A stretch of 64,000 nt of DNA from a virus (lineage: Duplodnaviria > Caudoviricetes). The stretch lies in IMG/VR virus record IMGVR_UViG_3300027365_000007. One strand, written 5' to 3'. Below, piece by piece: positions 6,308 to 50,400 of the stretch (position 1 is the stretch's first letter; every line of letters starts with the position of its first letter). The position numbers were made by a program, and so were the translations under genes. The notes under the pieces are model-generated. The model was given only the letters and a program-made list of their open reading frames with translations, was not told where the DNA came from and did not search any database.

Positions 6308-7843
6308 TTAATATTTTATACAATACAAAAGAGCAACGTTACGAGGGCGAGTTTCGCCGTCTGTAGTGTCTGAGACACGAGCATCAGTTGAGCCAGCACT
6401 ATCAAAATGTAAATATCTTGAGGGGGCTATTGGGTATCCACTAGCCCCCGAAGCAAATTCACTCCACGTAGACGATGAAACGCTGAAAGCACCAGATGGA
6501 TTATAGAATATCCCAGCACTACTACCTATAACGGCATGGACTGTGCCAGTAATTCGCTGCATTTGATCAAGTTGTGTAGTTCCGAAGTAACGGGCCGTAT
6601 CGACACCGCGCCCATCATCCCATCCACGTATAAATTCACCACGTAAATCAGGCACAGCGAAGGTTCCATCAACTTCCGATCCACCAAATGTTCTACCTAT
6701 TTGTGCAAAAAGTTCAGGATATACACTCTCGTCCAACAATGCCCCATTACACTTGATATAACCGTCTGGTGGTGTCGGCATTGCAACTGCGAACACCGTT
6801 CCCGTAGGCACACCATTGAGGTAAGCTAGAAGTCCATCGATATAGTCCTTGCTGTACACTTCTAAATTGTCTCTAGCTAACGACTTGCTAGTAAGTTCAG
6901 AAAGATTCAAACCTTTTTGTAAATACCTTGCATCACTTTCAGTAGTGGAAAATACATTCAGGTTATTTCTAGCACTAGCTTTATTGGTCAAATCATTTAG
7001 ATTATCTTGTACTTTTAAAAAGCGTGAATCACTGATTGATTTCCCATAGTAATTATCCTTCAAAGTAGTCGGAACTACAGCTACATCACTTCTAAGACCA
7101 TCCTGCACTTCTGGACTGGTACCGATTTCCAGAACACCTGCATACGATGTAGTACTGTTTTGTTTAATATTGTCAAATGACAATATAGGGTTATTAATAT
7201 CCGACAAATTGGCATTTTTAGCCAAATACCTTGCATCACTCTCAGCTTCAGATAATACTTCTAGTGATGCACGAGCAATAGATGGATTGTTTATATCCTG
7301 TAAATCATTGGTCACACGTAGATAACGATTATCTAGATCGGATATTGCATTGCCTTCCAACGTCTGTGCATTGATGGTAAACTCGTCAGGGTCAAACTGA
7401 ACCGCTTCTATTTGGCGACTTCCAGATTTAACTCTTAAAAAGAATCCACTAGAAGTGTCGTTATCAGCACGTAAGCTCGGTATTTCAATAAAACTCTGGT
7501 CAACAACACCAGAAGAATTCACTTGTAAATACTGATATTGATTAACTGAAATATTACTCCAATCAATATTATTAGAATCTAGTTTTTTATTCACAAAAGA
7601 TGACGTAGCAGAATCATACACCACAGTCTCACCTTCTGAAGGTGATTCAACCGTCAAGTCTGTACCATCCAATAGTTGTGCATTCCATCCATCAGGTTGT
7701 TCAGAACGCAATGTATCGGCAATGTCTACGACGAAATCGCTATAGAACATTTTCTTGTAACCATTCTGGTCAACTAAAAGTTTTGCCCCATCTTGAATAT
7801 CTGTTATTGGGGTTAAGTCATTAATATATACTCGTTCTGTCAT
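6308..7843 (-). CDS. Tail fibre protein with internal repeats and C-terminal collar domain
   Basis: About four RYL.K..NL.D/EL....AR.NL repeats; collar GVPTGTVFAVAMPTPPDGYIKCNG...VPDLRGEFIRGWDDGRG; ends ETRPRNVALLYCIKY. Confidence 0.9.
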   Translation of the reverse strand: MTERVYINDLTPITDIQDGAKLLVDQNGYKKMFYSDFVVDIADTLRSEQPDGWNAQLLDGTDLTVESPSEGETVVYDSATSSFVNKKLDSNNIDWSNISVNQYQYLQVNSSGVVDQSFIEIPSLRADNDTSSGFFLRVKSGSRQIEAVQFDPDEFTINAQTLEGNAISDLDNRYLRVTNDLQDINNPSIARASLEVLSEAESDARYLAKNANLSDINNPILSFDNIKQNSTTSYAGVLEIGTSPEVQDGLRSDVAVVPTTLKDNYYGKSISDSRFLKVQDNLNDLTNKASARNNLNVFSTTESDARYLQKGLNLSELTSKSLARDNLEVYSKDYIDGLLAYLNGVPTGTVFAVAMPTPPDGYIKCNGALLDESVYPELFAQIGRTFGGSEVDGTFAVPDLRGEFIRGWDDGRGVDTARYFGTTQLDQMQRITGTVHAVIGSSAGIFYNPSGAFSVSSSTWSEFASGASGYPIAPSRYLHFDSAGSTDARVSDTTDGETRPRNVALLYCIKY

Positions 7844-8760
7844 TAGTAATCTCCGTCTATACCTAATACGCCATCGCCATATAATCCAAGTGCACCGTCA
7901 GTATCGCCAATACCCAGTACCTGATTTGGTGGTGGTGTTGGCATATCTGTGAATTCACCAGCGACAACCCCAGCAATATTCCAGCGCTGAATTCTATAAT
8001 AAATCTTCGTACTATGATCGGACGGTTGAGTAAATAACACCCGTAGCTTGGAATTAACTGTATCAACTGACGCATCAAACTGTATGAAGCTACCATCTAT
8101 CGCAGCATTCATTAATAGTTGATCATCGTCAAATCCAATGTATTCTTGACCGTCTCCACTCACTGAGTTGTCTCCCATCAATGTCATCGTGCCACTACGG
8201 CGATGCCAGCCGTCGTTCTGAACCAATGTATATTCCACCTGTAAGTGGTATACTTGCTTCATATCAAATTCTAAAAATACTCCCGCATCAGAACTATCTA
8301 GTACCTTTGTCATAAGACTTCTTGAGGGTCTTAGTGATGTCGAAGGGGAATAATTGGCATTAAAATCAGAAGGATGAATGTAATCATTAACATTTTCACT
8401 TGTAACTATTTCAATATTACGTTCTAAACGCGCAACATCGTCGGGGCGATTAGCGTTAATGAAATTAACAATTTCAACAGCTTTAGTGTGATCTTCAGCT
8501 TCAATTGTAAGACCTTCACTTATTTCATAACTGTTATAGTCAACACTACTGTCGAGCATTGATTGAATTTCTTGAACCGCATTCGGGAAAGCGTCTACTG
8601 ACACGACATTTGCATTAACATAGGTCGAATCTTGAGGATCTGTGCCTATGAAAAGCTGTGCAGTATCCGTTGTGAAACCGAATTCACCAGAATCTAGGGT
8701 AGGTAGTTCAGAGCGCAAGCCCTGACGTTGTAAAATCTTTTCGTAGCGTATATCAGCCAT
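7843..8760 (-). CDS. Virion structural protein with Mtd_N-like N-terminus
   Basis: N-terminus KILQRQGLRSELPTLDSGEFGFTTDTAQLFIG resembles fibre attachment domains; TAATG coupling to the next gene. Confidence 0.7.
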   Translation of the reverse strand: MADIRYEKILQRQGLRSELPTLDSGEFGFTTDTAQLFIGTDPQDSTYVNANVVSVDAFPNAVQEIQSMLDSSVDYNSYEISEGLTIEAEDHTKAVEIVNFINANRPDDVARLERNIEIVTSENVNDYIHPSDFNANYSPSTSLRPSRSLMTKVLDSSDAGVFLEFDMKQVYHLQVEYTLVQNDGWHRRSGTMTLMGDNSVSGDGQEYIGFDDDQLLMNAAIDGSFIQFDASVDTVNSKLRVLFTQPSDHSTKIYYRIQRWNIAGVVAGEFTDMPTPPPNQVLGIGDTDGALGLYGDGVLGIDGDY

Positions 8761-8796
8761 AAATACTTGTTCCTATTGTTATAAGTATTTATGGTT

Positions 8797-8828
8797 ATTG
8801 AAAAGAGTCCTTAAGGACTCTTTTCAAT
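8797..8828. terminator. Perfect 32-bp palindrome, probable bidirectional terminator
   Basis: ATTGAAAAGAGTCCTTAAGGACTCTTTTCAAT is its own reverse complement. Confidence 0.8.
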
Positions 8829-8900
8829 GTAATTCGTCAGGACGCTCACTGCGTTCGACGCCTTCCTCACAATAAAGACAAAAGCCGTCTAATCGGTCTT

Positions 8901-9608
8901 TCAGACCTCTAACCAGCGGACTGCTCTGGTCCTATGGGAATAAGGCTTGTTATTGTAGTACTGAGATCCATATCTGAAACTCTGCATCCAAGAAGTAGCA
9001 GGAGTGTATTCCATCGACGACCAATACCAAGGATGTGTTAAGACATCAAATGCTTGACTACCACCTTCAACAAAATCACTAACAGATGTCTGGGACGGCT
9101 CACTCGTCGTATAAGAGCTACCTTCAGGACTACTGTTTGGATTTGTGCCGTTAACAGCATCATGAAGAGGTCGGGTGTTTGTATAATTATCATCAGTAGT
9201 GGGCTTCAGAAACCGATAACAAATTTCCAATTCATCGGGTGCTGGTAGATGCCAATCATTAAACCCATTAATATCTAAGTTAGCACAGTATTGTGCGGCA
9301 GGATGATCACTCAGACCAACCGCTATGATAGCGTCCATATTGGCTTTGCCATTATACGTACTGGTAGCGCCACTGGTGGTCGTTTGACTCGTTTTCCATT
9401 GAAGAGTACCATTATATTCACCTAATTCTTTAGGGGCTATAATGATAGCGTATTCCTTTCCGTCCACTAAAATATTACCACCGGCATAGTAGCCACCAGC
9501 GCTTTCGATGTACTTGCCAGCATCCGCTACTAGCTCTGGTGTTGTGAATACTTGGTTTTCGCGAATGCGAATGTTATTGAGCCCTGCGTTATATATTTTG
9601 ACAGCCAT
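8901..9608 (-). CDS. DUF1566/C-type lectin-fold protein, candidate DGR target
   Basis: Motifs HPAAQYC...GFNDWHLPAPDEL and C-terminal YWSSMEY...SW.QSF..G.Q....K.....RAVR. Late-promoter motif at 9643-9649 and GGAG RBS. Confidence 0.85.
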   Translation of the reverse strand: MAVKIYNAGLNNIRIRENQVFTTPELVADAGKYIESAGGYYAGGNILVDGKEYAIIIAPKELGEYNGTLQWKTSQTTTSGATSTYNGKANMDAIIAVGLSDHPAAQYCANLDINGFNDWHLPAPDELEICYRFLKPTTDDNYTNTRPLHDAVNGTNPNSSPEGSSYTTSEPSQTSVSDFVEGGSQAFDVLTHPWYWSSMEYTPATSWMQSFRYGSQYYNNKPYSHRTRAVRWLEV

Positions 9609-9678
9609 AATTAAAAAATACTCCTATGTTTTATTATAAGAGTATTTATGCCTCATAATAACTTCCATTTTCTCACCA

Positions 9679-10374
9679 CTACTCAGAATAATACTGATCT
9701 AGAATATCAATCCATTTGTCTTTATAAAATTTAAAATCATCACCAGCTTTTATTACTTTTTTTGCAGTAATATTACTTGAATTCGCAACGAATATGACAC
9801 ACTGTTCAATATTAGTATTAAATAGATAATCATGTGCCACTGCATATGCTGCGGCCTGTGTGAAGTAGTCTTCCATGTGTTCTTCTTTTTTATCTTTATA
9901 TGCATTCTTGAAGTCAATAATAGAAGTTGCACCTTTGTATGTTCCTACTAAATCAGTACGACCTGCATAACATTCTGGCACAAATAGCGGTACTTCAGCG
10001 CCCCATACTTCGTCTACATCTTTGAGTCCTACTTCCCAAATCTTTTTAGCCATATCCCCGGCTACTTTAAAAATAAAATTCTGCTTAAACAGCTTTTCAT
10101 AATCTGGTGTTCCAACAATTTGATGATAAAGAATGTCGTGCATACAATTACCGAAATTCAAACTTTTATCTAGAATCTGTTGGGCATTTTTATGACCTAT
10201 AGTACGTTTCCATTCTTCTATTATCTCTTTCTTATCCGACATACGTGATAAGATGGTTGTAACTGAATACACGGGGTCATATTTAACACCGTTCAGTTCG
10301 ATGAAATAAACACGACCGGCTTTGCCGGTCGATTCTTTTACAACGGTAGGATAATCATATTTCTCTTTATACAT
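9679..10374 (-). CDS. PD-(D/E)XK exonuclease
   Basis: SVTTILS, EVPLF...YAGRTDL, IIDFK and QAAAYA motifs. Confidence 0.88.
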   Translation of the reverse strand: MYKEKYDYPTVVKESTGKAGRVYFIELNGVKYDPVYSVTTILSRMSDKKEIIEEWKRTIGHKNAQQILDKSLNFGNCMHDILYHQIVGTPDYEKLFKQNFIFKVAGDMAKKIWEVGLKDVDEVWGAEVPLFVPECYAGRTDLVGTYKGATSIIDFKNAYKDKKEEHMEDYFTQAAAYAVAHDYLFNTNIEQCVIFVANSSNITAKKVIKAGDDFKFYKDKWIDILDQYYSE

Positions 10375-10712
10375 TATTTCATTCGCTTTTTAGTAGCTTC
10401 TTTAGCTTTTTCCGACGCTGGATTATATTCTTCTTGGTCAGAAATATCAGGACGTTCGTCGTCTATCTCATCACTTTGTGTTGAAAATACAACTTGTTTA
10501 TCCTGATTCGTACTAAGATTTTTATTACTATCAACAAAATCCTCAATATCTTTTTCGTTAGCGACGTAACCAATCTTATCCAATTCCGCAATTATGTTTT
10601 CAATATCAACTTCCGTTAGACCAGATTTCATGAACATCATAATAATGTTCATGATTTCTTTATTAAGTTTTTCCTGATAATCATTGTCTTCGTAAAGTTC
10701 GTGAATTTTCAT
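10374..10712 (-). CDS. Acidic hypothetical protein, possible internal head protein
   Basis: Starts MKIHELYE; TAATG-coupled to the nuclease gene. Confidence 0.7.
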   Translation of the reverse strand: MKIHELYEDNDYQEKLNKEIMNIIMMFMKSGLTEVDIENIIAELDKIGYVANEKDIEDFVDSNKNLSTNQDKQVVFSTQSDEIDDERPDISDQEEYNPASEKAKEATKKRMK

Positions 10713-16695: not shown

Positions 16696-18357
16696 TTATT
16701 CTCCAAAGGTAAACATAAGATATAATCTTGCTCTTTCACCTAACCCCGCACTAGCACCAACCTGACCCTGCGCACAATCAAGTGTGATTACGTTATCAAA
16801 AGTGCCAGAAAATAAAGTGGTCTGATCGTATGTTGCACCGCCACCAGAAACCTTCCTTGTGCTAGTGACAGGTGTATTGATTATATATTCATTTGTTTGC
16901 GTAACATGTGCATATTGTTGGATACTAATAGGTGGATATGCTTTGCCATTAAACGTAAACTCAACAATACCACCCGGACCATTTACGATATTCACATTAA
17001 CACCGGGGGTTGTATTTTGTATCGCATCAGGTGCGCTTAGATCACCACTTGATCCAGAAGTGTACCAAAGTTCGACCCATTCATATGTTAAGGTACTACT
17101 ACCGCCTGAGATTGCTTGTGGTACGAAATTTGTTCCATCATATACCAATGCATCACCAGATGTTGGTGCAGTGGTAGTAGTGTCTACATCACCCAACTCA
17201 TCAAGTACCGTTGCTCCACTTCCAGAAACGGTCGCCGCAACAAAGCTCGTACCATCAAACTGTAATACTTGCCCAGAAGTTATACCAGTGGTATCAACAT
17301 CCGATAACTCATTAATTGAAGTAGGTATAACGGGCGTATTTACTAGATCGTTATAGTCACCAGATGTTGCCACAGTTGACAGAACGGGTAAATTACTCAA
17401 ATCATTATAGGAACCAGTAGTCGCTACAGTAGCAAGCGTTGGAGTACCAGTGACTTCAGAATATGCAACCGAACCATCAACCCAATTAGCGCCATCATAT
17501 TTCAATACATTGTTAGCGACGACACCAGTGGTATCTACATCACTAAGATCATTTACATTGACAGGTATAGATGGAGTGTTTGATAGATCGTTATAATCCC
17601 CGGATGTGGCAACTACAGCTAAACTCGGTGTGCCAGATATTTCGCTATAGGAAACTACACCATCAACCCAATTAGTACCGTCAAATTTTAGAACATTATC
17701 AGTAACGACGCCAGTTGTATCTACGTCCGTTAGCTCATTGAGTATAGTAGCGCCACTACCAGATACTGCCTGTGGTACGAAATTGGTTCCATCAAATACC
17801 AACGCATCACCACTTGTAGGTGCAGTAGTAGTGGTATCAACGTCTATCAGATCGTCTACTGATGATGGAATAGAGGGTTGGTTAATTAAATCAGTATATG
17901 AGCCACTTGTAGCTACTGTTGAAAGAACAGGCGTATTCGATACTTCACTGTAATCAACTGAACCATCAACCCAATTAGTACCATCATATTTTATAACATT
18001 ATTAGTCACAACACCAGTTGTATCTACATCCGTTAATTCATTGAGTATAGTAGCACCACTACCAGAAACTGCCTGTGGTACGAAATTGGTTCCATCAAAT
18101 ACCAACGCATCACCACTTGTAGGTGCAGTAGTGGTGGTATCCACATCACTCAACTCATCAAGGGCGGTAGCGCCACTAGAAATTGTATAAAAACCAGTAA
18201 CGCCACCTACTTTCCCATAAAAAGTATTATCCTGTGCAGTGCTGAAACCTTCAATATCTTGAGCAACTTCAACTACATTATCTCCATTAGAATCGTATGT
18301 AGTCTTCGTCATCAAGTCTTGTGGTTCTAAAAAACTAAATTCTATTTCATTAGCCAT
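16696..18357 (-). CDS. Repeat-rich fibre-like structural protein (553 aa)
   Basis: Multiple L.ELSDVDTT...GDALVFDGTNFVP and LSTVATSGSY.DL repeats. Confidence 0.8.
   Translation of the reverse strand: MANEIEFSFLEPQDLMTKTTYDSNGDNVVEVAQDIEGFSTAQDNTFYGKVGGVTGFYTISSGATALDELSDVDTTTTAPTSGDALVFDGTNFVPQAVSGSGATILNELTDVDTTGVVTNNVIKYDGTNWVDGSVDYSEVSNTPVLSTVATSGSYTDLINQPSIPSSVDDLIDVDTTTTAPTSGDALVFDGTNFVPQAVSGSGATILNELTDVDTTGVVTDNVLKFDGTNWVDGVVSYSEISGTPSLAVVATSGDYNDLSNTPSIPVNVNDLSDVDTTGVVANNVLKYDGANWVDGSVAYSEVTGTPTLATVATTGSYNDLSNLPVLSTVATSGDYNDLVNTPVIPTSINELSDVDTTGITSGQVLQFDGTSFVAATVSGSGATVLDELGDVDTTTTAPTSGDALVYDGTNFVPQAISGGSSTLTYEWVELWYTSGSSGDLSAPDAIQNTTPGVNVNIVNGPGGIVEFTFNGKAYPPISIQQYAHVTQTNEYIINTPVTSTRKVSGGGATYDQTTLFSGTFDNVITLDCAQGQVGASAGLGERARLYLMFTFGE
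17661..18147. repeat. Near-identical ~184-bp direct repeat with 303-bp period inside the fibre gene
   Basis: 17661-17844 matches 17964-18147 (shared GCCTGTGGTACGAAATTGGTTCCATCAAATACCAACGCATCACCACTTGTAGGTGCAGTAGT); a more diverged copy lies near 17110-17230. Confidence 0.85.
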
Positions 18358-18392
18358 TGTTATTATTCTCCATAAGTTATTTTAGAACTTCG

Positions 18393-21300
18393 TTATACTT
18401 GAACGAAGTTCACAATTCTAATTGTATCCCCTGCATTACGCGCAGTAGTTAATGTTATTTGTGTCGGATCTGATGTATCTACAGCATTTGTACGCAATAG
18501 AATACCGTTGGCAAATACCATCACATTTCCACTATGGTTGAATGGTATAACTGTTTGATCTTGTACCATTACAAACTCATGTTCGACCGCATTAGTCACA
18601 GTAGCCTGTGTATTAGTCTGTGATGTTGCAGGATCATGTAGTACCAGTACCCTAATGGTATCACCAGAATTTCGCGGTGATGTTAGTGTGATCTCTGAAG
18701 TACTTGTTGCTGCATCAACTTCACTTGTAGGTAATAGGAAACCATTCGCAAATACCATCACATCGTTATCGTGTTCAAGGACAAATACTGTCTGATCTTG
18801 TGATGCGGTGAATTCGTAATCACTGGTTGACTGACTACCAGCAGCAGGGTCTCGCGGTTCATATTGCTGCGTACCCGCGTTATAAGTTAGAACCTGATTA
18901 TCCTGTGGCGTCACCGTTTCATCTACGTTATCTAGATCTTCGATGGAGTTCACACTACTAACTAGGCCCATCTCAAATTGTCCAGATGTAGAGTTATAAA
19001 CCAATGTTTCACCATCGCTTGGTGCGAGTGCCGAGTCAACATCATTAAGTTCACTAAGTTGTGTTGCCCCTACCTGATCAGTAATAGTAAAAGGAACGAA
19101 ACCAGTGCCATCAAACTGCAATACCTGACCAGTCGTTATACCCGTAGTATCAACATCAGAAAGTTCGTTTATCGCAATAGTACGATTTGCAAAATTCGTA
19201 CCATCATAAACTAACAAGTCGCCACTAGAGGTATTAGTCAGTTCAATACCACTAAGGTTATAAACACTAGGTTGAATGTAGGTGTAACCGTTAGTGACTA
19301 CGTTTTTATATTTTCTCTCAATAACATCAGGTGTTTGTAACGCATTGTATACCGCAAAATTATCAATACTATATGCTTGAGATCCAATTTCTAATTCTTG
19401 TAGCAATTGCACATTGACGCTATAAGAAGAGTCATCGCCAATAACAGTTGATACTGTCTGGTCAACAACATCATTGGTATTCACAATAACATTAATATCG
19501 GTATTGGTACCATTCTTGTAATAATTCACTACAACATGGTTGAATATGCTATCGTTTAAAGTAACCGCGTATGAACCCGCAATAGTTCCATTCTTAACCA
19601 CACGAATGCGATGTTCAAAAGAGCCAGTCCCATCTGGAACAATCACAAACTCCACTGATATTTCTTCCGATGCTAATGTGTCAGCAACGATATTCATTCT
19701 CATCACTATGGCATCTTCAGGTGTTCCTTGATAAGCAACATTCGTAGTAGGCTGATACCAAAAATCATATGAAAACTGATATGATTCTGCTTGAGCGAAG
19801 GAGCCAATTGTTGCGCTTAGTGACTTTGCTTCAGTACCACTGTTGATATCATAACTGGTACCAGAATAGATACTAGTACTACCTTTTACACCAATACCTG
19901 TTTCGTAACTGTATCCAGTGTCAGGAACTATATTAATATCATTAATTGTACCAATTAGATCTTCATTAAAGTTCCAATATTCATAGGCATTTGTAACTTT
20001 AACAATCTCGTCATACGACAGTTCCACCTTGGCTTTTATATATTCAGAACCATTCCATACAATAGAATCTCCATTCGAAGGCATCTCAGAAGACACATTC
20101 GACAGTTGTTCCACTGAAACGGATGGGAAACCATTAACAAACTCACTGTTTGTTGCATCCCATACAATTGCGTCTCCATCGGACAATGTGGTAAAGTTTA
20201 CATCACCTGCTTCTTGAATTTGAGACTTACGGATTTCGTATGTACCAGTTGATGAATTAAAGAATACGCCACTGCCGTCAACTTCTTCGACAAGATCAAC
20301 ACCATTGAGATTCTGTAGTGATATCACATCACTTACTGGACGTAACTGATAAGATGAGCTTGTGCCGTCCCATACCATTGTATATGCTACACCTGAAGAT
20401 GGAGCTGCAATCTCAGATACATCTGATAGAGCCGATATGTTAAGGGCGTTACTTTCATAAACACCAGAAGTACTATTATATTGTAAAATATAACCATCAA
20501 TCGAAGCGCTTGTATCAATACCAATAGCATCAGTAATGCTGGTGTTTACGAATCTACTGTTCAGTGAATCATATGTCAGAACCTGTCCATCAGTCGGAGA
20601 TGTCAATGCGTGACGTAGGTAATTCTGTGCCACGAAATCATTTCCATCATAAACAAGTGTTTGACCGGAAGTAATACCACTTGCGTTCACGTCTTGAAGG
20701 TTTAACAGTTCTATAGATTCAAATATATTTTTATTAACATATTGTGATAACGCACCGTCATAAACGACGATTTGTCCATCAGCAATGTTAGTGATAGTAA
20801 CATCAGCTAAATCGGAAAGATTCTCAACGCCAAGTGTGTTACCATCAACAGATTCATACTGTCCGGTAGTTCCATTAAACTGAAGAATATTACCGTCACT
20901 TGGTACTATGCTGGTGTTATACGGTAATATCCCTTGAGGAACGTATGTACCTGATTGGTATACCAGAACATCACCATTGGTAATTCCAGACGCAGAAACA
21001 TCGCTAAGTTCAGATATAGACTGGGTAATGTCTGAGAACTCAAATGTTCCAGAGGTAGAGTTGTAAACCAGACCGTATCCATCTTGTGCATTAATAACAC
21101 TAGATTCATTAACATTGTTGAGATCTTCGATCCCCATGTTGACAGTGACATTAAGTGATGAGCTATCAGCAGGGACAAATGCAGACTCTGACGAACTCCA
21201 CACCAGTACATTGTTATCTGACACACCTGTAGTATCAACATCAACCAACTGGTTAATACTTATATTCTGTAACTCATTAACCAAGTTAGTATTATTCAAA

Positions 21301-22817
21301 AACTTATTCTGTGGAGTCTCAGTCAAATTATCAGTAGTCTTCTGACTAAAGAATGAATCGAATGATACAGAATTGAAGTGTAAACTATCAGTAGTTTCAC
21401 CAAGATCAATAAGATTTTGTGGGAACTGTCCTACTTGGAATTCACCACTGCCTGAATTATAAACAATGGTTGAACCGTCGCTTAAACCAGTAAGGTTTAT
21501 ATTTGAAATATCAGATAGAACGATTTCTCTATTATTCCACGTGGTTCCATCTGAATACAAGAAGGTTCCCGCAGATTGAAGGGCATCTACATCACTTATC
21601 TCATTAAGACTAATACCATAGTTCACATCAACAAGATACTCACCTATATCTGTGTAGACGCGTTGTGATTCATAATAAAGATTGTTAGATCCTTCGGCCA
21701 GATCATCAGTGGTGTCAAGGTTTGTAGCAACATCAGTAAACACCCATTCAGAACCATTCCACACAGGGGCCTGTCCTGAGACAGGGGAAGTCGCATTCAC
21801 AGAACCTAGATCTTGGATTGATACAGAACCTAAAGTATCTCTTACACGTTGGGTTGTGAAATATAAGTTGCTTGTACCTTCAGGTAATCCGTCAGTGTCT
21901 TGAGGCACGTCAGCATCAATTACAATTTCTTCACCGTTGAAGTTGGTTGAAACATTAACATTATTTCCACCAGTAACGCTACGGAATTGAAGATTGCCTC
22001 CAAACCTTGCAAAAAATGTACCAACGCCATTACCCACGTTCTCAGCATCAGTGATTGATCCAGCAGTGTCGCCATCAGAAATAACACCAAGTGAACTTAA
22101 TGGTGCAGACTCCCATATATTTCTCACACCGTTGTACACCAACACGCTTTCATGTTCTATGTTGGCTAAATCAACGTCTACAAGCTCTGATAAACGACCT
22201 GTGGTAGATGGTTTTGGTATCCAAGTACCTTCTGCCGTGTCCCATGTCAATACATCACCATTATCAGCACCGTTACGCTCAAGGTTTTGTGATATGATTG
22301 ATTCAGTCGCAAGACCATGGAAAGTAACTGCGTACATATCGGCATAACGACGACCATTTGAGCCTATATCATAGGTTGCATCAACATCTGGTATATTGTT
22401 TGCATTCGCAAACATGAAGGTGCTATCAGCTTCACCAGTGCTATATACGTCAATATTACTTCGAACCAGTGTTGAGTCAGCATCAGAAAGGTTGTTGTTT
22501 TTTTCCAAGTAGCCAGAACGTGGTAACCCACCTAGCGTACTCGCTTCACCATCAAATTCAATATCAATATAAGAACCTGAAGAAATTAGATTAATTCCAT
22601 TAAGTCCTCTTATACGTCTAAAACGCATAACGTTCGAAACAACGTTATTAAAAATATACTCACCGTCACTAGTACCTAAGTTCATACCACCTTGAATAAA
22701 CGTGGTATTACCAAAAAGACTAAGATCAGGGTCTACATTTACGAAAGCTTGTTGAGTTTCATCATACACCAAAATCTGGTTATATGAAGGGTCTGTTACC
22801 TTTAGTTCGTCAGCCAT
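18393..22817 (-). CDS. Large fibre-like structural protein (1474 aa) with repeats and a LamG-like domain
   Basis: Many L..L.DV......G..L.YDG repeats; a YEYWNFNE...DFWYQP...FNHVVV...IDNFAVYN LamG-like block; duplicated C-terminal QDQTV...VMVFANG.LL...RN.GDTIR unit. Confidence 0.8.
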   Translation of the reverse strand: MADELKVTDPSYNQILVYDETQQAFVNVDPDLSLFGNTTFIQGGMNLGTSDGEYIFNNVVSNVMRFRRIRGLNGINLISSGSYIDIEFDGEASTLGGLPRSGYLEKNNNLSDADSTLVRSNIDVYSTGEADSTFMFANANNIPDVDATYDIGSNGRRYADMYAVTFHGLATESIISQNLERNGADNGDVLTWDTAEGTWIPKPSTTGRLSELVDVDLANIEHESVLVYNGVRNIWESAPLSSLGVISDGDTAGSITDAENVGNGVGTFFARFGGNLQFRSVTGGNNVNVSTNFNGEEIVIDADVPQDTDGLPEGTSNLYFTTQRVRDTLGSVSIQDLGSVNATSPVSGQAPVWNGSEWVFTDVATNLDTTDDLAEGSNNLYYESQRVYTDIGEYLVDVNYGISLNEISDVDALQSAGTFLYSDGTTWNNREIVLSDISNINLTGLSDGSTIVYNSGSGEFQVGQFPQNLIDLGETTDSLHFNSVSFDSFFSQKTTDNLTETPQNKFLNNTNLVNELQNISINQLVDVDTTGVSDNNVLVWSSSESAFVPADSSSLNVTVNMGIEDLNNVNESSVINAQDGYGLVYNSTSGTFEFSDITQSISELSDVSASGITNGDVLVYQSGTYVPQGILPYNTSIVPSDGNILQFNGTTGQYESVDGNTLGVENLSDLADVTITNIADGQIVVYDGALSQYVNKNIFESIELLNLQDVNASGITSGQTLVYDGNDFVAQNYLRHALTSPTDGQVLTYDSLNSRFVNTSITDAIGIDTSASIDGYILQYNSTSGVYESNALNISALSDVSEIAAPSSGVAYTMVWDGTSSSYQLRPVSDVISLQNLNGVDLVEEVDGSGVFFNSSTGTYEIRKSQIQEAGDVNFTTLSDGDAIVWDATNSEFVNGFPSVSVEQLSNVSSEMPSNGDSIVWNGSEYIKAKVELSYDEIVKVTNAYEYWNFNEDLIGTINDINIVPDTGYSYETGIGVKGSTSIYSGTSYDINSGTEAKSLSATIGSFAQAESYQFSYDFWYQPTTNVAYQGTPEDAIVMRMNIVADTLASEEISVEFVIVPDGTGSFEHRIRVVKNGTIAGSYAVTLNDSIFNHVVVNYYKNGTNTDINVIVNTNDVVDQTVSTVIGDDSSYSVNVQLLQELEIGSQAYSIDNFAVYNALQTPDVIERKYKNVVTNGYTYIQPSVYNLSGIELTNTSSGDLLVYDGTNFANRTIAINELSDVDTTGITTGQVLQFDGTGFVPFTITDQVGATQLSELNDVDSALAPSDGETLVYNSTSGQFEMGLVSSVNSIEDLDNVDETVTPQDNQVLTYNAGTQQYEPRDPAAGSQSTSDYEFTASQDQTVFVLEHDNDVMVFANGFLLPTSEVDAATSTSEITLTSPRNSGDTIRVLVLHDPATSQTNTQATVTNAVEHEFVMVQDQTVIPFNHSGNVMVFANGILLRTNAVDTSDPTQITLTTARNAGDTIRIVNFVQV

Positions 22818-45229: not shown

Positions 45230-46414
45230 ATGGCTACTAATCTATTTGAAGGACAAGCGTGGAACCAAGTTAAAACTGGTCTATGCGAAGGTCTTGAAAA
45301 CAAAAAACGTGAAAACTTCGAGATGGTTCTTGAGAACACTCGTAAGTTCATGATGAACGAATCTGCATCTTTCGGTGCAACCAGTTCTGGTAACGTTGCG
45401 ACTCTAAACAAGGTAATCCTACCTATGCTACGTCGTGTTATGCCGAACGTTATTGCAAACGAAATTATGGGTGTACAGCCTCTTCCGGGTCCGGTTGCTC
45501 AGATTCATACTATGCGTTATGTTTACTCCCAGAATTCTTCTGAAGTAAATGCTGGTACTGAAGCACTATCCCCGTTTGATGTTGCACGTGCTTACTCTGG
45601 TAACGACGATGCAAACAACCCTGCCGCTGCTTCTACTGCAACTCTAGAAGGTCAGCCGGGTAAGAAAATCGCAGTTAACATCGTAAAGCAGACTGCCGAA
45701 GCAAAGACACGTCGTCTAAGCTCTCGCTGGACTGTTGAAGCTGCTCAAGATGCTGAGAGCCAGTTCGGTGTAGATATCGAGTCTGAAATCATGGCTGGTC
45801 TAGCACAGGAAGTTACTACTGAGATTGACCAAGAACTATTAGGTCGTCTACGTAACCTAGCCCGTACTGGTGCTATCTATGACATGAGTCAGGAAGATAG
45901 CTTCACTGGTTCCCCGACTTTCGTTGGTGATCGTCACGCAGTATTGACCACTCTAATCAACCAGCAAGCAAACCTTATTGCACAGCGTACCCGCCGTGGT
46001 CGTGCAAACTGGGCTGTTGTTGATCCGATGGCACTGACTATTCTTCAGTCTGCAACCACTTCTGGTTTCGCACGTACTACTGAAGCAACCTTTGACGATC
46101 CAGACAACCAGAAACTAGTTGGTACTCTAAACAACACTATGAAAGTGTATGTTGATACCTATGCCGACGAAGGTACTCCGGTACTAATCGGTTACAAGGG
46201 TCAGAACGAGTTCGACGCTGGTGCATTCTACTGCCCATACGTTCCTCTAACTGCAACTCCTGTGATCACCGATCCGAACACCTTCGAAAACGTTGTTGGC
46301 TTCATGAGCCGTTATGCTTATGTTGAGCTTAGCAACAGCGCTAGTTCCTTCGGTAACGCAGCGGATTATGTATCTAAGATCGATATCCCTGCTGGTTCTA
46401 TCAAGTTTATCTAA
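45230..46414 (+). CDS. Major capsid protein (T4 gp23-like)
   Basis: ILPMLRRVMPNVIANEIMGVQPLPGP, TRRLSSRWTVEAAQD, EIDQE, AQRTRRGRAN and GAFYCPYVPL motifs; strongly biased codon usage. Confidence 0.97.
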   Translation: MATNLFEGQAWNQVKTGLCEGLENKKRENFEMVLENTRKFMMNESASFGATSSGNVATLNKVILPMLRRVMPNVIANEIMGVQPLPGPVAQIHTMRYVYSQNSSEVNAGTEALSPFDVARAYSGNDDANNPAAASTATLEGQPGKKIAVNIVKQTAEAKTRRLSSRWTVEAAQDAESQFGVDIESEIMAGLAQEVTTEIDQELLGRLRNLARTGAIYDMSQEDSFTGSPTFVGDRHAVLTTLINQQANLIAQRTRRGRANWAVVDPMALTILQSATTSGFARTTEATFDDPDNQKLVGTLNNTMKVYVDTYADEGTPVLIGYKGQNEFDAGAFYCPYVPLTATPVITDPNTFENVVGFMSRYAYVELSNSASSFGNAADYVSKIDIPAGSIKFI

Positions 46415-47482: not shown

Positions 47483-50400
47483 ATGGCAAAGCGACTATAT
47501 TTTAAAGATTATTACTACTTGCAAGGCAACAACGTACATGTACATGGTGTAGGTGGCTTGAAAGTACCTTCAGGGGACACATCGCAACGCCCTGATGTCA
47601 TGGAAGCGACTATGCGTTATAACACCGAAACCAATTCATGGGAACTAGGTACGCATAACGATATGTTGATCTTCAACACCAATGATGATGGTACTAGTTC
47701 TTTTTACAGCAAAAATGGTGGTGTTCTCCATGGTGATGTAGTAATAGAAGATGGGCATAAAATACAAAATGCTGACGGTAGCTACATACGTCCTAGTTAT
47801 ACCTTTGCCAATGACTTGGATACAGGTCTATACCGTAGTGCAGAAAACACCATAGATGTTGTGGTTGGTGGTGAATTTAATTCGAATGAAGTTCCTGCTA
47901 TTCGCGTTACTAGAAATGGATCATTGAGTGGTGATTATGATCAAACTGTTGAAATCAATGCTGAATTGGTTATTAACGGTAGCATTACAAATGTACAGAG
48001 TACAGACCTTGAGGTCGAAGACAACACGATCACCTTAAACAAAAATGGTATCAATGCTGGAAGATCTGGCATTGAAATAGAAGCTAATGGCGCAATTGCG
48101 TCACGCTTTTACTATGATTTCGCAAAATCTAAATGGTCAACAAATAATATTCTCATCACTGACCAACCTGATCCTGTGGTTGCTAGTGATTCGGCAAACA
48201 AAAACTATGTTGATGTTGAAATTCAGACTTTAGACGACGATCTCACTGCTGTAATAGAACAGAATTATCAGACACTTGACCAGAAGATAGATAATGAAAT
48301 CACCCGTGCGACTAATCGCGAAAATACTATAGAGAACAATCTTAATGCTGAGATTACCCGCGCTACTAGTGAAGAACAACGCATTGAAACTAAGTTTGAT
48401 ACTGCTGTATCCGATCTTCAATCAACAGATAGTGATTTACAGACACAAATCACGGATGAAGTGAACCGTGCCACTGGTGAAGAACAACGCATTGAAACTA
48501 AATTTGATACGGCTGTATCAGATCTTCAATCGACAGATAGTGATCTACAAACACAAATCACTAATGAAGTAAATCGTGCAACTACACGTGAAGATGATTT
48601 ACAAACACAAATCACTAATGAAGTGAATCGTGCAACGACTCGCGAAAACAATATAGACACCGCATTAACCAATGAGGTTACACGTGCTACTGGTGAAGAA
48701 CAGCGTATAGAGACTAAGTTTGATACTGCTGTATCTGATTTACAGACAATAGATAGTAATTTACAGTCACAAATCACTAATGAAGTGAATCGTGCCACTG
48801 GTGAAGAACAGCGCATTGAAACTAAGTTTGACACTGCTGTTTCTGACCTTCAAACAACTGACAGTGATCTACAGACACAAATCACCAATGAAGTAAATCG
48901 TGCTACCACACGTGAAGATGATTTACAGACACAGATCAATGGTAAAGAAGATGAGTTGGGTTATATTCCAGAAGACTCAGCTAATAAGAGTCAACCAAAT
49001 GGATATGCAAGTTTAGATTCTAATGGCAAAGTTCCTACATCCGAACTACCCAATTCAGTCTTTGGTGGTATTTCTTATCAAGGATCTTGGGATGCAGTCA
49101 ACAATACTCCTATATTACAATCTGGTGTTGGTACAAGAGGTGAATACTATAAAGTAAGTAATGCTAGTACAAATACCACATTGAATACTACGCTGGACGG
49201 TGAGAACGATTGGTCCATAGGTGATATAGTGCTTTTCAATGGCAGTGTATGGGAAAAGTTTGACCAGACAGATAAGGTTACAAGCGTCAGTGGTGTTAAC
49301 AACACTACACCTAAAGTTGGCGACGTAATACTAAGCTTGGAAGATGTCGGTGCTAGTTCTTATGGTGCAGATCTATCAACAGCCACGGACGCTCTGGATG
49401 CCCGTAACAAGCTACTATTAGGTACCGCGTCAACATATGATGTTGGGACTGCTGAAGGTGAAATACCAGTCCGTGTAGCAAGTGGTGCACTTACTGGGAA
49501 CTTGTTAGGAAATGCAAATACCGCATCTACCTTAGAAACTCCAAGAACATTTAATTTCTTGGGAGATGCTACTGGTTCTGTGATTTTTGATGGAAGTTCG
49601 GATGCTAATATAACCCTGACCGTACAGGATGATAGTCATAACCATATCATTTCTAACATTGATGGTCTACAGACTGCGCTTGATGGGAAGTTGGATGGAA
49701 ATGCGATTGCGGTTAACTCTGAACTTCTAGATGGTGTGAGTTCTGAACAATTCTTACGCTCAGACGTTCCTGATGAATTAACTTATAACAACCTTGGACT
49801 GGGTACTGGACTGACTTTCGGTGTCAATACTGATGGTACCGTTACACATAGCGGCTTAGTTCTAAAGGCAGGTACAAATCCATCGTCAGGTGATCGTTTA
49901 TTTACGATAAAATCCGAAGGTGAGTCACCAAGGCTCATTGTAGAACATGATGGTGCTGTTAAAACATCTAATCCAGATATGTATGTTAATGTTGTACCCG
50001 ATGGTTCTGGCGGATACCGCGTTTATCATGATAATTATCATCCGGTTGCTGATGCGTTGAGTAATGCTATTGATGTTACACTGTCTGGTGATGTTACAGG
50101 AACTATTAATACTGATTTCTCGGGCAACGCAAACATTACCACTACTGTAGTGGACAATAGTCATAATCACATTTGGGATAATATAAGTGATAAACCTGCT
50201 CCTACAATTACTTTGGATGGTGATGTAAGTGGTTCTACCACTCTTACCGATTTAGCTGATGGCACTATAACGGTTGATATTGATGATACATATAATCTTA
50301 TTGTTGTTCCTACGACTTCAAGTTACCCCGCTGTATCCTCATTACCGGCTAGTGTATCCGCAATAGATGCGTACAACTCTCCTGACAACCCAGATGGTAG

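Follow-up and report, generated by a model that had tools for sequence, protein, structure and literature searches.

The prototype of the DGRs is that of Bordetella phage BPP-1 (mtd-avd-TR-brt), in which a 24-bp inverted repeat directly 3' of the variable region (VR) is needed for efficient homing; other phage VRs have comparable downstream hairpins, with GC-rich stems of 7-10 bp and GRNA loops (Guo et al. 2011, PMC3240598). Of the catalogued DGRs, approximately 14% have targets of the DUF1566 type, roughly one half of which are short proteins consisting of this single domain (DUF1566-only; Wu et al. 2018, PMC5758913). In the same work, non-adjacent targets were accepted only when they differ from the template repeat (TR) at adenines. 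Phage-associated targets of this kind nearly always lie at most 50 kb from the reverse transcriptase (RT), while remote targets, at distances from the RT of over 100 kb, belong almost only to DGRs without phage association and are not expected for phage DGRs (PMC5758913). A full-text literature search pairing DGRs with jumbo or huge phages, which was not exhaustive, returned no title or abstract on a DGR in a T4-like jumbo phage.

Here we describe a lectin-like gene in a window of 64,000 nt (the whole stretch of DNA that was analysed) from the 222,591-bp contig of the Caudoviricetes virus IMGVR_UViG_3300027365_000007. The original prediction, made from the sequence alone, had read the 3' end of this gene as a DGR-type VR separated from its machinery. 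By pattern the gene is a former DGR target, and it is not classifiable as a current one; from sequence comparison with a related DGR, we consider it probable that the gene is a stranded and frozen paralogue of a DGR target. In the following list of features, L002 is the homologous DGR locus on the contig IMGVR_UViG_3300027365_000013 and G009 is a sister jumbo phage.

8797..9678, minus strand: inserted segment of 882 nt, lacking in the sister jumbo phage (by tblastn and by aligning the window to L034/G009)
8801..8824, minus strand: perfect 24-nt palindrome AAAAGAGTCC-TTAA-GGACTCTTTT, terminator-like, which closes the inserted segment (read directly)
8832..9644, minus strand: cassette that corresponds by homology, from promoter/RBS through the gene to the downstream element, to the DGR target locus on IMGVR_UViG_3300027365_000013
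8832..8900, minus strand: non-coding element of ~70 nt 3' of the VR, containing the inverted repeat 8851-8861; 1 mismatch to the genuine DGR target
8895..8907, minus strand: 5-bp hairpin GGTCT-GAA-AGACC over the stop codon (read directly; identical in the genuine DGR target)
8901..8927, minus strand: last 8 codons (RAVRWLEV) and stop, nucleotide-conserved; 0-1 nt differences to L002, L001b and L001c
8901..9608, minus strand: gene for a 235-aa Lcl_C/DUF1566 lectin-fold protein (Pfam PF07603, E=2.4e-10; phrog_4245)
8921..9003, minus strand: VR, in register with the 83-nt TR/VR of the homologous DGR (aligned to L002 VR 9578-9660 and TR 10400-10482)
9641..9649, minus strand: ATAAATACT, a T4-type late-promoter-like motif upstream of the lectin gene, which also precedes the next gene at 8784-8792

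The family to which the 235-aa protein is assigned, PF07603, is Lcl_C, formerly DUF1566, and reading of the minus strand confirmed the C-terminal peptide that had been quoted for this ORF. An AlphaFold2 model based on 30 homologues (pLDDT 88.9, pTM 0.86, residues 1-21 disordered) has as its best Foldseek match among solved structures the C-terminal domain of Legionella pneumophila Lcl (8q4e; probability 1.00, TM 0.73 on the target, 15% sequence identity). 8q4e is a bacterial adhesin domain that is not known to be DGR-associated. The next matches are the Bacteroides fimbrial protein 4eps and then C-type lectins and the formylglycine-generating enzyme (FGE). Pfam family, model and structural matches together give a C-type-lectin-like fold with the VR at its C-terminus, the arrangement of a DGR variable protein. 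Homologues of the protein fall into 43 clusters, and the protein itself is a member of the cluster of P0001; GenBank provided distant matches in Pseudomonas and Halomonas phages only and no phage nearly identical to the window.

The lectin gene is located between a PD-(D/E)XK exonuclease gene (9679-10374) and a 305-aa gene (7843-8760), after which come two tail-collar fibre genes. We infer that the lectin protein is expressed late and associated with the virion, and it probably has one fixed specificity, made late alongside the tail fibres. The 305-aa protein (window 7843-8760, minus strand) has an N-terminus that is weakly similar to Mtd_N (E=7.8e-5, below the Pfam cut-off), the N-terminal domain of the BPP-1 major tropism determinant. 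Elsewhere in the window, ORFs of 553 aa and 1474 aa at 17079-22452 (minus strand) contain families of internal direct repeats of 40-300 nt, pointing to repetitive fibre-like proteins, and five tandem 108-nt (36-codon) repeats are found within a 1130-aa ORF at 48241-48947 (plus strand).

The closest homologue of the window protein, P0001 (81% amino acid identity), is encoded on the 63,688-bp contig IMGVR_UViG_3300027365_000013 (handle G006, loci L002-L005). In L002 the P0001 gene is followed by bAvd, a TR that is an 83-nt repeat of the gene's 3' end, and a 344-aa RT with a YMDD motif; the whole adjoins ribonucleotide reductase genes. The 83-nt VR and TR differ by 5 mismatches, all at TR adenines, leaving 0 of 50 non-adenine positions mismatched, and on these sequence features the P0001 gene is a genuine DGR target. 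With this homologue in hand and the two VRs in register, the predicted DGR-type VR on a C-type-lectin-like (Lcl_C/DUF1566) fold is borne out, and the DGR ancestry of the window VR can be taken as established because the gene is homologous to a working element.

Other members of the lectin family occur both with and without a DGR. The 720-aa tail-fibre proteins of L007 and L010 end in the same domain and have an adjacent Avd-TR-RT, with TR/VR mismatches at 15 adenine sites and 1 other site in L007 and at 14 and 0 in L010; between DGR lineages with diverged RTs, the downstream element is ~48% identical. The static state of RT-less relatives is seen at the locus L025 (protein P0002), which shows 100% nucleotide identity in 5 ENA samples; it is collinear with L002 and has an unrelated stretch of 212 nt in place of the 1.8-kb Avd-TR-RT. 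A further protein, P0027, has the same sequence on 11 contigs, none with an RT close to it; it was considered as an alternative allele at the window locus and rejected, as its phage context is different. Family members also occur in two large fragments and three complete phage genomes in which a search for RT, run with a positive control, was negative.

Several observations were made on these relatives in their own right. The 360,972-bp marine contig L001 encodes three Lcl_C paralogues (L001:7358-8059, 10001-10696 and 17106-17798) whose VR scaffolds are homogenised relative to the gene bodies, with third-position differences at 0-1 of 26-27 in the VR versus 22-24% outside, and one shared TR is therefore implied. 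No Avd, TR or RT was found within 10 kb of these paralogues, and the slot corresponding to the L002 DGR contains two small reverse-strand ORFs. The tail-fibre VRs of L008, L009 (L009:8432-10594) and L011 (L011:8432-10600) differ at 12-13 codons and only at positions 1-2, with 0/27 third-position differences versus 14-24% elsewhere in the gene. None of the three has an adjacent DGR, and the complete 72.8-kb IMG/VR genome containing L011 (G003) is without RT or TR; these loci may represent either very recent independent DGR losses or a DGR acting in trans. The ribonucleotide reductase large-subunit gene by the DGR slot is interrupted by LAGLIDADG inteins (L002:12025-17748 and L001:11892-15191); it is divided among several ORFs in L002, and L001 has it intact.

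Within the window gene, the last ~35 codons of the ORF at 8901-9608 (minus strand) alternate between invariant and hypervariable positions. Mean column entropy, calculated on an alignment of the 14 closest sequences (at least 65% identity), is 1.31 bits over residues 193-227, 0.53 over residues 1-192 and 0.09 over the last 8 residues. Relative to the closest homologue, differences at codon positions 1, 2 and 3 number 11, 6 and 5 in the 27 codons of the VR and 16, 14 and 65 in the remaining 197 codons (Fisher P=1.7e-4). Both measures place the variation of the VR on positions 1-2 of specific codons in an invariant scaffold, and substitution at these positions is specific to the VR across the whole lectin family. 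The codons listed in the original prediction for the 3' end of the gene were correct on reading of the minus strand, although three codons of the stretch (GCT, ATG and AGA) had been passed over. The bias towards codons ending in C or T that was drawn from this list is weak by itself, with 11 of 13 high-entropy columns versus 63% gene-wide (P=0.09), and is upheld in comparison with the fixed columns (7 of 22; Fisher P=0.005). ATG and AGA are variable codons of the window with G or A in third position, in contrast to the T or C of the L002 TR and relatives, and such endings fit drift since the last writing event. All 11 of 11 VR words are found in run X1, which is the only run that holds them; runs X2-X4 contain 8-14% of the words of 7800-10400.

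The absence of TR and RT from the 64 kb, also part of the original prediction, held up under tblastn, HMM, repeat and blastn searches, and Avd is absent as well. With the L002 proteins as tblastn queries, the lectin gene was the only match in the window; a DGR-RT profile HMM applied to all six frames of the window scored at best 6.7 bits versus 440-506 bits for positive controls; and no second copy of the VR was detected in the window by repeat search or sensitive blastn. An intact Avd-TR-RT is, however, present on G006, a contig from the same run that abuts the window contig on the map of the sister phage. Logan contigs of SRR5818261 match the window at 100% identity, and SRR5818261 also has an 8,934-bp contig of which 4,862 bp, with Avd, TR and RT, are 100% identical to L002. 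The window maps to G009 at a steady offset of ~+83.8 kb and the end of its 222,591-bp contig projects to ~210.4 kb; G006 maps to 210,714-239,066 of G009 and then runs past the G009 end. The two contigs thus abut without overlap on the G009 map, they are equally divergent from G009, and they come from the same small run. Based on this projected collinearity, the window contig and the DGR contig very probably belong to one genome, which would place the TR ~135 kb from the window VR.

At the corresponding positions G006:63590-63688 and G009:210503-210812 there is a palindrome-rich divergent intergenic region, where the DGR-bearing contig breaks off in at least one assembly and apparently in a second, independent one; on G006 this region is the probable junction with the 222,591-bp contig. 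G009 has the tail-fibre and ribonucleotide reductase loci on one contig. The window's major head protein (45230-46414, plus strand) is 95-98% identical to those on the 239-kb and 361-kb contigs, and its cluster has members on contigs up to 458-462 kb; the 360,972-bp L001 contig contains both this head protein and the reductase locus. CheckV estimates the 239-kb sister contig to be 54% complete. Because of the larger contigs in the head-protein cluster and this completeness value for G009, the 222-kb phage is probably a fragment of a much larger genome.

One suggestion of the original prediction was diversification in trans by a DGR elsewhere in the jumbo genome. A DGR is indeed present on the 63.7-kb contig of the same run, very probably in the same genome, but the idea that it currently diversifies the window VR does not agree with the mismatches between the two. 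Relative to the L002 TR, which lies on the probable neighbouring contig and is the only candidate TR, the window VR has 11 of 33 adenine-site mismatches and 8 of 50 non-adenine mismatches (16%), the latter spread from the first codons to codon 227 at the 3' boundary; the adjacent target in L002 has none of the latter. Outside the VR, 95 of 591 positions of the gene are divergent, a rate (16%) equal to that of the non-adenine positions of the VR (Fisher P=1.0), and this equality leads us to conclude that the TR has never homogenised the window VR since the paralogues separated. The three L001 paralogues, with their homogenised VRs, show the contrasting pattern that is expected of copies written by one TR. 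These VR comparisons were made on consensus assemblies and suggest that the VR is at present inactive. A frozen captured cassette, which the original prediction had offered as a fallback, fits these results best, along with the 882-nt insertion lacking in the sister phage.

The collinearity of G009 (239,090 bp) extends over the entire window, at ~75% nucleotide identity, with a major head protein (MCP) that is 98% identical and an exonuclease that is 84% identical. There 45 nt separate the exonuclease stop from the 305-aa gene, and the promoter-like sequence is again the same; because the G009 exonuclease gene directly precedes the 305-aa gene, 8797-9678 of the window is extra sequence. This insertion consists of 34 nt, the cassette homologous to L002 and the perfect 24-nt palindromic terminator-like hairpin. 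Neither an Lcl_C homologue nor an RT was found over the 239 kb of G009. Along the cassette, sliding identity to L002 runs at 82-95% through the gene body, falls to 62-73% over the VR and reaches 98% at the 3' end; homology to L002 is confined to 8832..9644. The motif ATAAATACT has 6 matches in the window versus 1.9 expected, a count attained by no shuffle, which suggests a late-promoter function, and recombination between copies of this type of promoter is a plausible route of insertion. Absence at the G009 junction, a late-promoter-like motif and a palindromic terminator-like hairpin are features of a phage moron or mobile cassette, and the same cassette occurs in other contexts in L001, L025, L029 and L030. 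Across the clade, the DGR module is present in L002, absent with targets kept in L001 and L025, and absent together with the targets in G009.

Two further observations on the cassette were considered and set aside. Its GC content is 42.9% versus 37.2% for the window, which was rejected as a sign of recent transfer since the homologues are also GC-richer than their own genomes. Breaks in the Logan contigs at 9588 and 8826 were rejected as a presence/absence polymorphism of the cassette: the break at 9588 is accounted for by 35 nt shared exactly with the L002 paralogue that co-occurs, and that at 8826, where Logan contig L021 starts next to the palindrome 8801..8824, most likely results from this adjacent 24-nt palindrome.

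The 3' end of the gene is the part most closely shared with the working element. Third-position divergence from L002, L001b and L001c is 33-49% elsewhere in the gene, in contrast to the near identity over the last 8 codons and stop, and the homology of the L002 TR and VR stops inside this conserved segment, at ...AGAGCAG, making it a probable IMH-like 3' boundary of homing. The predicted inverted repeat GGTCT-GAA-AGACC over the TGA stop was confirmed by reading the sequence, and its hairpin forms part of the minimum-free-energy DNA fold of both the window and L002. For the second predicted hairpin, GCGT-CGA-ACGC at 8851-8861, the inverted repeat is present but the hairpin is missing from the minimum-free-energy DNA fold, where its bases pair otherwise; the stretch around the hairpins folds little better than shuffles (z=-1.85). 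The conservation of the non-coding element at 8832..8900 is high, the probability of at most 1 mismatch in 69 nt at 33% third-position divergence being 3.5e-11. The IMH-type boundary and downstream hairpin region of the window together differ from the genuine L002 target at 2 of 95 nt, which has P=1e-5 given the 16% divergence of the gene itself, and in L025, which has no RT, this downstream element has acquired ~10 changes. Such a preserved recognition end could indicate a site that is still used and under selection, although gene conversion with a paralogue in the same genome or recent arrival from a DGR-bearing relative would explain it equally well. A larger recognition-type structure, unlike that of the window subgroup, is seen in three other loci (L007:5503-5553, L010:10554-10605 and L011:10584-10634), with a 7-bp stem over the stop codon and ~40 nt 3' of the VR; this stem shows a compensatory change, GATGGGT/ACCCATC in L007 and L011 and GGTGGGT/ACCCACC in L010.

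The preserved 3' end speaks for continued activity, in which the DGR ~135 kb off would home into the window VR at a low rate and the consensus would represent the dominant variant. This DGR looks intact, having an Avd, an RT ORF that includes YMDD and TR/VR mismatches confined to adenines; it comes from the run of the window and probably from its genome, and the recognition end of the window gene is nearly identical to that of the target it serves. Homing in BPP-1 requires the 24-bp inverted repeat 3' of the VR, with upstream sequence being dispensable (PMC3240598), and Avd, TR and RT act in trans (PMC5758913). A single homing event would nevertheless erase the non-adenine mismatches described above, including the one at codon 227; the VR scaffold resembles the TR no better than the gene body resembles its paralogue; and the longest identical runs at the VR ends are ~8 nt, which would be poor for cDNA integration. 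We consequently rate an active remote target as unlikely, and there is an equally slim chance that the recognition end has been kept by selection in a latent or low-rate target, with occasional homing swapping in a TR-derived tip. A VR scaffold that differs from the known TR is what would be expected if another TR were the template, whether from a second TR/RT in the other 158 kb of the contig, a co-infecting phage or the host, and the related RT-less phages with L008, L009 and L011 have VRs that differ only at adenine-derived positions. Against such a different DGR, no member from the 222,591-bp contig is present in the clusters of L002-type RT and Avd or in eight further top RT clusters, and the sister phage G009 has no RT. 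Downstream elements differ between DGR lineages, and another lineage would be expected to bring another element. A scan of 185,579 prokaryote species genomes, bacterial and archaeal, for the VR/TR scaffold repeat and for the downstream element was empty on both counts, which goes against the host or prophage DGR proposed in the original prediction. We regard templating by a different DGR as very unlikely.

An ordinary DUF1566 protein, with a C-terminus under normal diversifying selection and no DGR ancestry, would be consistent with the many family members that have no RT nearby and with a codon-ending bias that is not significant in the window alone. It is very hard to reconcile with 81% identity, in register, to a protein whose VR has a cognate TR and A-only mismatches, with a nucleotide-conserved 3' end in common with that genuine target, and with the family-wide occurrence of double changes at first and second positions without third-position changes, and we give it almost no credence. 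Under the preferred reading, that of a stranded and frozen paralogue, the C-terminal binding surface would once have been written by adenine-specific mutagenic retrohoming. The copy would then have moved as a self-contained cassette comprising a late-type promoter, the gene, the VR, an IMH-like end and a downstream element of ~70 nt, and it now forms the 882-nt insertion in this T4-like jumbo phage, with the exonuclease gene on one side and the tail-fibre module on the other. The DGR itself (target-Avd-TR-RT by the ribonucleotide reductase genes) would very probably reside ~135 kb away on the neighbouring contig, and as its distant TR has not rewritten the window VR, the VR would be effectively frozen.

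Surveys of DGRs require a nearby RT or a perfect non-adenine match to the TR, and stranded copies consequently go uncounted. The present case shows a target cassette and its recognition end moving alone within a clade of T4-like jumbo phages, and it provides a simple test for distinguishing served from stranded targets, in which the rate of non-adenine mismatches between VR and TR is set against how far the gene body has diverged. If low-rate homing were true, it would represent phage DGR action over more than 100 kb inside a T4-like jumbo genome and would link a DGR among nucleotide-metabolism genes to the tail-fibre module.

In comparison with multi-target or remote-target DGRs, such as that of Treponema denticola (Wu et al. 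2018), the window target is likewise far from an RT (>100 kb if the contigs are one genome), but the accepted remote targets differ from their TR only at adenines whereas the window copy differs at non-adenines as well. The window protein falls in the same Pfam domain class as the category 'd'/CLec2 targets (DUF1566/DUF823/Fib_succ_major; Legionella LdtA type), which are defined with a cognate TR that the window copy does not have (Wu et al. 2018, PMC5758913). Relative to BPP-1, the fold is Lcl_C/DUF1566 rather than Mtd, the machinery is unlinked, and the weak Mtd_N-like N-terminus belongs to the neighbouring 305-aa protein and not to the lectin protein. In both systems the VR lies at the C-terminus of a C-type-lectin-like fold and sets variable codons of adenine origin in an unchanging scaffold, and there is an inverted repeat at the stop codon or beyond it. 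At 5 bp with a 3-nt loop, the window hairpin is shorter than the BPP-1-like hairpins, with their 7-10 bp GC-rich stems and GRNA loops (Guo et al., PMC3240598), yet it is identical to that of the working L002 target. Finally, compared with the DGR of IMGVR_UViG_3300027365_000013, the window copy is set apart by having no adjacent Avd, TR or RT, by its position beside tail-fibre genes and by its 16% non-adenine mismatch to the TR, and is allied to it by 81% protein identity, an in-register VR, the last 8 codons, the hairpin and the ~70 nt downstream.
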